Shown: positions 35,596-37,587 of the stretch, piece after piece | Position numbering within the stretch: the stretch's first letter is position 1 | Layout of the letters: each line of letters starts with the position of its first letter | DNA from: Escherichia phage vB_EcoM_WFL6982 | Direction: 5' to 3' (one strand) | Sequence record: MK373774.1 | DNA: 64,000 bases | The notes under the pieces: generated by a model | Seen by the model: only the letters and a program-made list of their open reading frames with translations | What the model was told of the DNA's origin: nothing | Database searches by the model: none | Position numbers and translations under genes: made by a program

Positions 35596-35933
35596 CTTAT
35601 TTCCTTAACGAATTCCATAGCTTCTTCATATTCATACTTTTTAACAGCTTCATCATACTGAGCTTGGGCTTTTGCGCACTGAACTTTCCACTCGCGAACT
35701 CGAGCTCTGTGATGACGGCCTTGGTGCCAATATCCTGCCCAATTAATAGGCATTAATAAAAATGGTACAATAAGTGGGGCGACGAACATTAATGAAAATG
35801 CTGCATCAGACGATATAACTTTACTAGAATCTAAAACAGCTCCTATAATCATAAAGATTAAAAATGCTAAAGCTAAAATAGGGCCAAATAGTACTTCGTT
35901 TGGGATTAATTTACGTTTGTATTCGTATGCCAA
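35574..35933 (-). CDS. Membrane protein (up to 119 aa; start uncertain)
   Basis: Track ORF begins with TTG inside the U-run of the upstream terminator; first in-frame ATG is at residue 28 with no SD. Hydrophobic helices and a basic HQGRHHRARVREWK segment. Confidence 0.4.
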   Translation of the reverse strand: MAYEYKRKLIPNEVLFGPILALAFLIFMIIGAVLDSSKVISSDAAFSLMFVAPLIVPFLLMPINWAGYWHQGRHHRARVREWKVQCAKAQAQYDEAVKKYEYEEAMEFVKEIRCKSLNS

Positions 35934-35959
35934 AAAGCCCCAACCTTTCGGAAGGGGCT
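35931..35959 (-). terminator. Rho-independent terminator (GC-rich stem, GNRA loop, U5)
   Basis: Minus strand AGCCCC-TT-CC-GAAA-GG-TT-GGGGCT followed by TTTTTG, ~50 nt downstream of the tRNA-like element. Approximate coordinates. Confidence 0.6.
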
Positions 35960-36010
35960 ATGCCTTGCGGCAACCTTGTCGGGGTTCCACCTGCTAAGGC
36001 AAGTGTTTGT

Positions 36011-36102
36011 ACGAAACGCCGGGATTTGAACCCGGTTATTAAGTAGTTGACGCTACTCAATATTTTTAAAAGGCCATATCTCGACCATATCCGAACGTTC
36101 CG
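36011..36102 (-). ncRNA. tRNA-like RNA element (canonical T-arm and 7-bp acceptor stem, no canonical anticodon arm)
   Basis: Minus strand has T-arm CCGGG-TTCAAAT-CCCGG, then 3' acceptor CGTTTCG pairing with 5' CGGAACG 92 nt upstream; the interior cannot be folded into a standard D/anticodon cloverleaf. Approximate coordinates. Confidence 0.4.
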
Positions 36103-36270
36103 TCAAAAACGCTACTCGGCTTACGGCAAAGATATTTCCTCGAATCGATAATTCTGTGCGCCGTTTCTGCTGTGATGTAAGGGGATATTAACAAATCGTA
36201 AAGATTTATTAAGACCAGTCCTTACTCAGGGAACATCAGTCCGACGACTTACCGGTAGCGACCCGGCTTC

Positions 36271-36666
36271 TTATTTTGACATATCATCAATTTGCTCTCG
36301 ACGCCGACGCCATAGATTAATCGCTTCATTAACACATTCGGCGTTTGGTATATGACGGCAATAATATAATGATTCGCGTTTCTGGAACCGATGTTGCAAC
36401 GGGATTTCGTTTAAAAGGTCTTTACGGTCAAAGTATTCAAAACTAGTTAACCCAGAACGATTTTTAAGAAACTTCCAATGTCCGAATTCATTTTGAAAAT
36501 AGACATAATCAGCATGCTGATACAGCGAATTAATTAACCTATCGGAAATAACTGTTTCACGTTCGTTAAAATAAAATGTTAAGTCATGAACTACCAGATA
36601 AATATTGCCTTTCATATTTTCCTCACTTAAAGTTGGTGCCTCTAGAAAGATTTGAACTCTCACCAT
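36271..36666 (-). CDS. Hypothetical protein (131 aa)
   Basis: Track ORF; start may be the internal ATG (MKGNIYLVVHDL...). Confidence 0.45.
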   Translation of the reverse strand: MVRVQIFLEAPTLSEENMKGNIYLVVHDLTFYFNERETVISDRLINSLYQHADYVYFQNEFGHWKFLKNRSGLTSFEYFDRKDLLNEIPLQHRFQKRESLYYCRHIPNAECVNEAINLWRRRREQIDDMSK

Positions 36667-36694
36667 TAACCTTAGAATGATTATATGCTATCCA

Positions 36695-37366
36695 TTACAC
36701 TATAGAGGCAATTAAATTATTTACAATATCTTCTTTATAAACTTCAGCATAATGAAGTTCATATATTTCCCATCCTAATGATTTTATAATATCATGGCGT
36801 TCTTTATAATAAGGGGCCAAAATCTTTTTCTTAGGATTGGAGTAATGTTGGTTTCCATTAACTTCAATAATAATCTTTTTATCTATTAAAGCAATATCCG
36901 TGCAATACGCTCGGTTTTTAACCGGTTGGTATTCTTCAATAAATGAAATTCCATTTTCTATTAATTTAGATTTCAAAAATTCACAAGGCACAGATTTAAA
37001 TTTTGTATTTTTCTTCCAAGGATGTTTATCGGGGTTTTCATTCAACCATTTTTTCCGAGCATTAGATATTTTTATTCTAGCTTCCTCAGAGTGTTCTCTA
37101 CCTAATGAAGCGGCTGACAATTTTTGTCTAGTCTCTTCCGAAATTACTACAGGAACACCAGTCTTTTTAGATACAACATACTGGTTTAAATTACCTGAAG
37201 CTATACGTGCTTTATTCATTGCTGCAATGGCTGATTTAGAACTTTCTTTATACAATTCCAATTTAGGGTTGGATTTACACCATCTAGTGTGGTTAGCCAT
37301 CCATCCTTTAGGTTTATTAGAAATATCAAATTCCATATTACAATGTTTACAAATGCTCATTACCAA
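36695..37366 (-). CDS. Putative endonuclease: N-terminal zinc ribbon plus C-terminal DUF559/Vsr-like nuclease domain
   Basis: N-terminal CKHC...HTRWC; C-terminal DIALIDKKIIIEVNGNQHY...RHDIIKSLGWEIYEL fits the D...EhxG.QH...R...GW pattern of DUF559-type nucleases. Lies next to the tRNA genes. Confidence 0.45.
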   Translation of the reverse strand: MVMSICKHCNMEFDISNKPKGWMANHTRWCKSNPKLELYKESSKSAIAAMNKARIASGNLNQYVVSKKTGVPVVISEETRQKLSAASLGREHSEEARIKISNARKKWLNENPDKHPWKKNTKFKSVPCEFLKSKLIENGISFIEEYQPVKNRAYCTDIALIDKKIIIEVNGNQHYSNPKKKILAPYYKERHDIIKSLGWEIYELHYAEVYKEDIVNNLIASIV

Positions 37367-37434: not shown

Positions 37435-37506
37435 CTGGCGCACTTGGACTCGAACCAAGATAAAGGAGTTAACAGCTCCCCGTAATAACCTTTATACGAT
37501 GCACCA
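37435..37506 (-). tRNA. tRNA-Asn (anticodon GTT)
   Basis: Hand-folded cloverleaf: acceptor TGGTGCA/TGCGCCA, anticodon stem GGGAG/CTCCT with loop CTGTTAA, T-arm CTTGG-TTCGAGT-CCAAG; no encoded CCA. Approximate coordinates. Confidence 0.7.
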
Positions 37507-37512
37507 TTTGTT

Positions 37513-37587
37513 TGGTGACCCTGGCTGGTTTCGATCCAGCTACCTATCAGTTATGAGCTGACAGCTCTCCCATTGAGCTACAGGGCC
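37513..37587 (-). tRNA. tRNA with CAT anticodon (Met, or Ile if lysidine-modified)
   Basis: Hand-folded: acceptor GGCCCTG/CAGGGTC, D-arm GCTC-AATGGGA-GAGC, anticodon stem GTCAG/CTGAT with loop CTCATAA, T-arm GCTGG-ATCGAAA-CCAGC, encoded CCA. Approximate coordinates. Confidence 0.75.

Follow-up and report, generated by a model that had tools for sequence, protein, structure and literature searches.

The window analysed here is a 64,000-nucleotide (nt) stretch of the genome of Escherichia phage vB_EcoM_WFL6982 (MK373774.1), within which an initial annotation had flagged positions 36011–36102 of the minus strand as a 92-nt transfer RNA (tRNA)-like element with a T arm and an acceptor stem but no anticodon arm. 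We are confident that the flagged stretch is the 3' domain of an ortholog of T4 rnaC, the gene for species 1 RNA, a stable, non-decoding RNA of 139 nt whose gene closes the tRNA cluster. Species 1 RNA was one of the earliest phage RNAs to be sequenced, and its gene is an already known element rather than a new one; it is real, well defined and unannotated in this record. The ends of the gene have been transferred from the T4 annotation (NC_000866, 70908–71046), and therefore the flagged interval corresponds to the 3' two-thirds of rnaC, the full extent of which is 139 nt (36148–36010) and not the 92 nt first proposed. The element and its parts, with helices labelled P1 to P4, are as follows.

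36010–36148, minus strand: whole rnaC ortholog, 139 nt
36141–36147, minus strand: 5' strand of P1, CGAUUCG, pairing with 36012–36018 (C-G, G-C, A-U, U.U, U.U, C-G, G-C)
36116–36140, minus strand: 5' strand of P2, the long irregular arm (segments AGG, AUAUCUU, GCCGUA and CCGA), supported by covariation
36095–36112, minus strand: hairpin P3, GCGUUU-UUGACG-GAACGU, which caps P2 (loop at 36106–36101) and contains 36102–36096
36071–36094, minus strand: 3' strand of P2, which holds both copies of GATATGG
36063–36070, minus strand: A-rich single-stranded linker UUUAAAAA between P2 and P4, unpaired in both the minimum free energy (MFE) fold and the consensus
36037–36062, minus strand: hairpin P4, UAUUGAGUAG-CGUCAA-CUACUUAAUA, with its loop at 36052–36047
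36019–36035, minus strand: T arm CCGGG-UUCAAAU-CCCGG, abutting P1
36010–36018, minus strand: 3' strand of P1, CGUUUCG (36018–36012), with the tail UA; the genome continues with CAA (36009–36007)

The identification is carried by homology. In blastn searches, T4 records with an annotated rnaC match the element at 98.6% identity over 146 nt, so that the likeness to the small stable RNAs of T4 suggested in the initial annotation is borne out, and a covariance model of the family matches 36007–36148 with 155.4 bits (E=1.3e-37), no other strong copy being present in the window. A 1.1-kb query that includes the element is 100% identical to Escherichia phage vB_EcoM_WFK (MK373775.1) and about 95–97% identical to RB69-group phages; the source phage is RB69-like. 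The reference annotation of T4 gives, in order along the tRNA strand, tRNA-Arg, rnaD (“species 2 RNA”, 119 nt) and rnaC (“species 1 RNA”, 139 nt). When T4, RB69 and the window are placed side by side, rnaD, spacer, rnaC, 3' trailer and terminator hairpin form one colinear block with 95% identity per column, and the comparison with the two T4 species thus identifies the element as species 1 and its upstream neighbor as the ortholog of species 2. Relative to T4 rnaC (misc_RNA T4s001), strand, gene order, length and predicted fold are alike, here in a Mosigvirus genome. The differences are two substitutions in the RNA, a T-loop G to A (36027) and a U to C in P2 (36083), a 131-amino acid (aa) open reading frame (ORF) between tRNA-Arg and rnaD in the window, and the missing rnaC feature in this record. 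The T-arm core GGTTCRAATCC has a single exact occurrence in the 64-kb window, and a search tolerating one mismatch finds 4 matches where 2.0 are expected; the short T-arm motif alone is therefore weak evidence, and we judge the element real because of homology and covariation.

The element is found by blastn in 746 phage records, the organisms of which are mostly Escherichia, Shigella, Enterobacter, Yersinia, Salmonella and Citrobacter phages, with Klebsiella phages appearing when divergent queries are used. Loci were retrieved from Tequatro-, Mosig-, Karam-, Moon-, Kagamiyama-, Gelderland-, Winkler- and Kanagawavirus and from Marfavirus, and the structural analysis below is based on a covariance-model alignment of 27 distinct sequences from at least nine phage genera, including filtered IMG/VR and metagenome copies. 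Scans of IMG/VR gave 4 and 16 loci, which contributed a few close variants and no new loop variants; 13 extra IMG/VR copies were left out of the alignment. A metagenome scan for the conserved 5' and 3' motifs (two exact motifs with 21 specified bases and a gap range of 31 lengths; loci L023–L080) returned 58 matches, of which nhmmer recognized three as real homologs. The other 55 are chance matches, many of them on long contigs (100–830 kb), and pattern scans of this kind thus need a model-based filter. No copy came out of an exact-motif scan of 185,579 genomes of bacteria and archaea, in which the one match failed the covariance model and had no tRNAs nearby, and the element appears to be restricted to phages. 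GenBank mostly gives the homologs no label at all; otherwise they are called tRNA-Met or tRNA-OTHER, or are overlaid by a coding sequence (CDS) for a “hypothetical protein”.

The comparative model folds rnaC as a four-way junction of an acceptor-like stem, a long arm, a hairpin and a T arm. Across the 27 sequences, 89.3% of cells are paired under this model, compared with 78.3% in shuffles and 37–47% in slid controls, and 30 of its 54 pairs are altered on both sides. RNAalifold independently predicts the same helices, the window sequence is compatible with every one of them, and the MFE fold of the exact 139-nt window RNA equals the comparative model, at -50.2 kcal/mol. Such strong structural selection, as seen in the pairs altered on both sides, is at odds with the suggestion that the element might be a decayed tRNA. 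The interior of the flagged interval, which had been described as unable to fold into D and anticodon arms, pairs with the 5' third of the RNA, outside that interval. The direct repeat GATATGG (36091–36085 and 36080–36074) is present as described, its two copies forming the 3' strands of two P2 segments, with GCCGUA and AUAUC as their partners in the 5' strand. The 6-base-pair (bp) stem with a 6-nt loop noted in the same interior is P4: the loop CGTCAA (36052–36047) was read correctly and the stem was taken too short, since it extends to up to 10 bp (36062–36037).

Support differs among the helices. In P3, five of six pairs are altered on both sides and 93.8% of cells are paired; the corresponding values are eight of ten and 92.6% for P4, and 14 of 17 and 84.3% for the inner part of P2. 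The T arm, which lies at 36035–36019 exactly as first described, is paired in 100% of cells with one of five pairs altered on both sides, its middle pair being U-A, G-C, A-U or U.G across the homologs. P1 has one altered pair of seven and 71.4% of cells paired: its third position is A-U in the four distinct T4-type sequences and G-C in the 23 others, and its two U.U oppositions are invariant in 27/27. The annotated T4 RNA ends 1 nt beyond P1 on the 5' side and 2 nt beyond it on the 3' side, as tRNA ends do. The 3' partner of this stem, CGTTTCG, had been assigned to the wrong 5' strand; in the comparative model, in the RNAalifold prediction and in the MFE fold alike it pairs with the true 5' end, CGAUUCG (36141–36147). 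The base that follows CGTTTCG (36018–36012) on the minus strand is T, at 36011.

The homologs fall into two subgroups that share their ends, the junction, both hairpin loops and the T arm, with central arms that are wholly unlike in sequence. P3, for example, reads AGCAU-UUGACG-AUGCU, CACGU-UUGGCG-ACGUG and similar in the divergent subgroup. Length, trimmed through the CAA tail, is nonetheless constant at 142–145 nt, as a fixed three-dimensional architecture would predict. Stems vary with compensation, while the acceptor end (two U.U and the UACAA tail), the junction (GAGGA, GGCCUU), the A-rich linker with its AAAAU core and the two loops are near-invariant. This pattern of conservation argues against a spacer and for an RNA that is specifically recognized and has a precise shape. 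Most homologs have the 3' tail UACAA, and those of Marfavirus have UCCAA. Marfavirus-type copies (Klebsiella phage F48, L014 400–542; L084, L029 and L073) end in CGUCCAA, that is, a discriminator U followed by an encoded CCA, and the same clade carries the loop change UUGGCG/CGCCAA; all other copies end in CGUACAA. T4-type and Karamvirus-type sequences have an internal heptamer (CGGAACG or CGAAACG) that could rival the 5' strand of P1 for pairing with its 3' strand, which could be a conformational switch or a coincidence.

The two hairpin loops are complementary. The P3 loop UUGACG (36106–36101) is the exact Watson-Crick complement of the P4 loop CGUCAA (36052–36047) in 27/27 homologs, so that all six loop-loop pairs are 100% paired. 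One of them varies, being A-U in 23 sequences and G-C in four: UUGGCG occurs with CGCCAA in the Marfavirus clade only, where both loops have changed together. The 13 additional IMG/VR copies have the identical two loops. The probability that two given 6-nt loops are complementary by chance is 2.4e-4. Taken together, the loop sequences suggest that P3 and P4 may form a six-pair kissing contact, either within one molecule or between two; kissing loops of 6 nt with every base paired are sterically possible, as in the HIV TAR-TAR* complex. If the contact is real, this covarying pairing would be the first defined tertiary feature of a 50-year-old orphan RNA. The contribution of this analysis is a comparative structure with its terminal acceptor stem and covarying, putatively kissing loops. 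TTGACG was also considered as the -35 box of a promoter, and was rejected: no acceptable -10 box follows at 16–19 nt, the divergent subgroup has another sequence downstream of the hexamer, and the hexamer itself changes in step with the P4 loop.

How far does rnaC resemble known RNAs? Its ends form a seven-position acceptor-like stem abutting a 5-bp T stem with a UUCRAAU loop, as in a canonical tRNA (RF00005), and it lies in a tRNA operon at tRNA spacing. It differs in lacking a D arm and a 7-nt anticodon loop, in the two U.U oppositions of its acceptor stem, in its length of 139 nt, and in its genomic tail, which is UACAA rather than NCCA, with no CCA encoded in this phage. P2 and P3 stand roughly in the place of the D arm, and P4 in that of the anticodon or variable arm. 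Having neither an anticodon arm nor an encoded CCA, rnaC should not decode. The rnaC model gives weak matches (about 14–17 bits) on the true tRNAs of the window, for which the shared acceptor and T-arm features would account. In the whole window, ARAGORN calls only Arg, Asn and Met tRNAs, neither the rnaC element nor any transfer-messenger RNA (tmRNA), and Rfam at gathering thresholds finds three tRNAs and nothing else; no normal type II tRNA is therefore called on the element by either program. At E<=10 over 35700–36700, Rfam gives no match to tRNA (RF00005), tRNA-Sec, tmRNA or YrlA on 36007–36148, the sole match on the element being a chance isrK on the opposite strand.

Among non-canonical RNAs, a parallel in architecture is the tRNA-like domain of tmRNA, itself processed by RNase P, which likewise combines an acceptor stem and a T arm with a long helix from the junction that replaces the anticodon arm. 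However, rnaC lacks the G3.U70 alanine identity pair (its third pair is A-U in the window, as opposed to G-C elsewhere), an encoded CCA in this phage, a tag reading frame and the pseudoknot ring. YrlA (RF02553), the MHV68 TMERs and mascRNA are further non-decoding, tRNA-shaped RNAs, some of them made by tRNA processing enzymes. The YrlA model has no match on the element at E<=10, and its matches in related loci fall on real tRNAs, far below threshold. The two RNAs also differ in that the ends of YrlA form the Ro-binding stem, whereas those of rnaC form the acceptor-like stem beside the T arm. No Rfam family matched rnaC in these scans, and a family model would correct hundreds of genome annotations.

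The setting of rnaC is that of a tRNA cluster, the other features of which are these.

37513–37587, minus strand: tRNA-Met(CAU), by ARAGORN and Rfam; one of the two tRNAs mentioned in the initial annotation
37435–37506, minus strand: tRNA-Asn(GUU), by ARAGORN and Rfam; the other of those two
36634–36709, minus strand: tRNA-Arg(UCU), by ARAGORN and at 57.6 bits by Rfam; the nearest true tRNA, in the same transcription unit
36155–36274, minus strand: rnaD (species 2 RNA) ortholog, by alignment with T4; separated from rnaC by a 6-nt spacer, GAAUUA
35932–36006, minus strand: 3' trailer with three hairpins, the last of which is the operon terminator

Two tRNA genes had been correctly placed some 1.3 kb from the flagged interval, yet they are not the nearest ones: the Arg(UCU) gene found by ARAGORN, about 530 nt from that interval and about 490 nt from the true 5' end of rnaC, had been overlooked. 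Downstream, direct folding confirms a hairpin with a GAAA loop followed by a U run (35959–35932), 53 nt from the flagged interval, close to where one had been predicted. The hairpin itself spans 35959–35936 and is followed by UUUUU; a consensus terminator scan missed it because its stem has two U.U mismatches, and it was found by folding the trailer directly. The trailer as a whole folds at -33.4 kcal/mol (z=-2.5). Two small hairpins precede the terminator, one at 36003–35988 (7-bp stem, loop CUUA) and one, UGCC-GCAA-GGCA, at about 35972–35961, and 35960–36006 is near-identical in T4 and RB69, a conservation beyond the needs of a simple spacer.

In T4 and in phages of the RB69 type, rnaC closes the array ahead of the terminator; in Karam-, Moon-, Kagamiyama-, Gelderland- and Winklervirus, rnaC has a tRNA gene on either side, for example those for tRNA-Trp and tRNA-Gly. 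There, about 5–6 nt separate the upstream CCA from the 5' end of rnaC, and 2–8 nt separate the ACAA tail from the next tRNA. In T4 the place of the upstream tRNA is occupied by rnaD, which ends in CCA, with the spacer AAUUA. Such tRNA-like spacing inside tRNA arrays makes maturation by the tRNA pathway likely, to judge from gene arrangement. rnaC would be co-transcribed with the tRNAs; in T4, a single precursor transcript covers the tRNAs of the cluster and species I and II, and ends beyond the gene of species I (PMC2330249). RNase P and 3' trimming exonucleases would then release rnaC like its tRNA neighbors, since its acceptor/T-arm minihelix would resemble a tRNA to those enzymes; a minihelix of this kind is the standard RNase P determinant. 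The released RNA would accumulate as a stable species, as the precedent of a discrete RNA in T4 suggests. Work from the 1970s reportedly described T4 species I RNA as a substrate of RNase III, which would fit the long P2 duplex. RNAC has been detected in T4 by northern blot, as a late RNA (PMC9697503).

The function of rnaC is called unknown in three publications (PMC3014915, PMC9697503, PMC12685909), and our literature searches for the function of rnaC, species 1 or RNAC returned only statements to that effect, the primary papers of the 1970s and the 2003 review of the T4 genome lying outside their coverage. The only hint there concerns the neighboring rnaD, in the form of the recurrent mutation described below. 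It is thus unexplained some five decades on, and yet the RNA is conserved in 746 phage genome records, from many Tevenvirinae genera and from Marfavirus. The most likely function, in our opinion, would be that of a protein-binding tRNA mimic, in the form of a decoy or sponge for a factor, of the host or the phage, that recognizes the acceptor/T-arm end of tRNA, with the invariant end region and the kissing-loop body as its specific surface. In its full form, that rnaC is a dedicated decoy, with its tandem U.U, its UACAA end and a body locked by kissing loops, for a factor gripping that end of tRNA, this proposal is speculative, and we would rate it as improbable. The target would be a host tRNA-targeting defense nuclease, or a tRNA processing or modification enzyme. 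If true, a decoy role would explain why rnaC is retained even in T4-type phages from which most tRNA genes have been lost; RB69 has kept two tRNAs, together with rnaC and rnaD. The terminal stem with its tandem U.U, the constant length and the covarying loops offer concrete targets for mutational tests.

Several points weigh against the interpretation built up here. P1 has standard pairs at only five of its seven positions, and its lone covarying position reflects one evolutionary event that separates T4-type from other sequences. Two lineages retain the T stem with a non-canonical T loop (UGCAUCC or UGCAUGC; Serratia phage LC53, L017 326–468, and L070 5054–5196, L087, L095 and L097), and the T-loop motif is therefore not essential for rnaC. 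The loop-loop contact, too, rests on a single compensatory event, because of which we continue to treat it as inferred, and an inverted repeat acting at the DNA level could in principle give the same loop pattern. On simple geometry an intramolecular contact is doubtful, as P2 and P3 together make about 26 bp against the 10 bp of P4, so that P2 would have to bend back. Finally, T4 deletions of the whole tRNA region are viable on laboratory strains.

Equally tentative is the alternative that rnaC acts mainly in cis, as a processing or stability module whose tRNA-like fold organizes cleavage by RNase P and RNase E or protects the neighboring tRNAs, with no role in trans. Its permanent place in, or appended to, tRNA clusters at tRNA-like spacing is what would be expected of such a module, as is its place as the last structured unit before the terminator in T4 and RB69. 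However, that position is not general, rnaC being last in the array in T4 and RB69 and internal in other genera. Nor would a spacer need invariant loops, an invariant end and a constant length maintained despite replacement of the central arm, and a discrete RNA accumulates in T4 (PMC9697503).

Somewhat less probable still is a base-pairing regulatory small RNA, which would use its invariant loops or its A-rich linker to bind mRNAs of the host or the phage. There are invariant unpaired segments to serve this purpose (UUGACG, CGUCAA and the AAAAAU linker), and RNAC and RNAD have been termed “small regulatory RNAs”, albeit without evidence (PMC9697503). The two invariant loops, however, complement each other, which is more simply read as a mutual contact, and no target is known, no target search having been made, since 6-nt seeds are uninformative.

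We consider it very unlikely that positions 36011–36102 make up a self-contained tRNA-like unit, that is, a type II tRNA, decayed or aberrant, in which the extra arm is long and CGGAACG/CGUUUCG is the acceptor stem. The complementarity on which this reading was founded is genuine: CGGAACG (36102–36096) matches CGTTTCG (36018–36012) at seven of seven positions, with one G.U. Moreover, ARAGORN calls a tRNA-Met(CAU) on these same 95 nt in the PG7/UFV01 lineage, and GenBank labels the PG7 copy tRNA-Met and the G9062 copy tRNA-OTHER. What does not stand is the claim that this pairing is a conserved acceptor stem. Its 5' strand lies in the 3' strand and loop of P3, a helix in which five of six pairs covary, whereas the proposed stem has no covarying pairs, shows a mispair at position 3 in 13 of 20 homologs and does not pair in the divergent subgroup. 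Forcing it on the window RNA costs 13.3 kcal/mol (-36.9 versus -50.2), and a seven-of-seven partner for CGUUUCG, G.U allowed, arises in 18% of shuffled versions of the 113 nt upstream. Rfam rejects the region even in UFV01, where the best match, to tRNA-Sec, reaches 18.4 bits (E=3.4), the gathering score being 47, and the RNA annotated in T4 has 139 nt. The mislabelled copies in PG7 (L022 451–545), UFV01 (L006 648–742) and G9062 (L021 451–546) are therefore treated as software artefacts of a fortuitous alternative pairing.

That the region encodes a small protein, as many GenBank records have it, or is a site acting at the DNA level, is hardly credible: a 42-aa (36066–36194) and a 49-aa (35911–36060) ORF do overlap the element and several records carry a CDS there, but these ORFs start with TTG and run over the rnaD/rnaC boundary, five helices show compensatory double changes, single-base indels are present, the central domain has been replaced at constant length with its pairing kept, and there is direct evidence for the RNA in T4 (PMC9697503).

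The genes that surround the element deserve brief comment. An ORF of 223 aa (36695–37366, minus strand) lies between tRNA-Asn and tRNA-Arg, at the position in the cluster that T4 gives to segB. It has no similarity to T4 SegB and gives weak matches to DUF559, RAP and NUMOD3, which suggests that a different homing endonuclease, probably of the Vsr/DUF559 type, is present in the tRNA cluster. Downstream, a 90-aa ORF has no similarity to T4 e.8. The 131-aa ORF (36271–36666, minus strand), which is RB69ORF150c-like and inserted between tRNA-Arg and rnaD relative to T4, has no Pfam match; its stop overlaps the predicted 5' end of rnaD, and its longest reading begins within tRNA-Arg.

rnaD itself has no T arm, and its predicted fold is a long hairpin, with z=-3.2 in the window and -0.8 in T4. 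Its 3' end is GCGCACCA in T4, with an encoded, tRNA-like CCA, and CACCG in RB69 and CACAG in the window. In a 2025 study in which a T4-like phage was adapted to a semi-permissive host, every line acquired the same single-nucleotide polymorphism in rnaD (PMC12685909).

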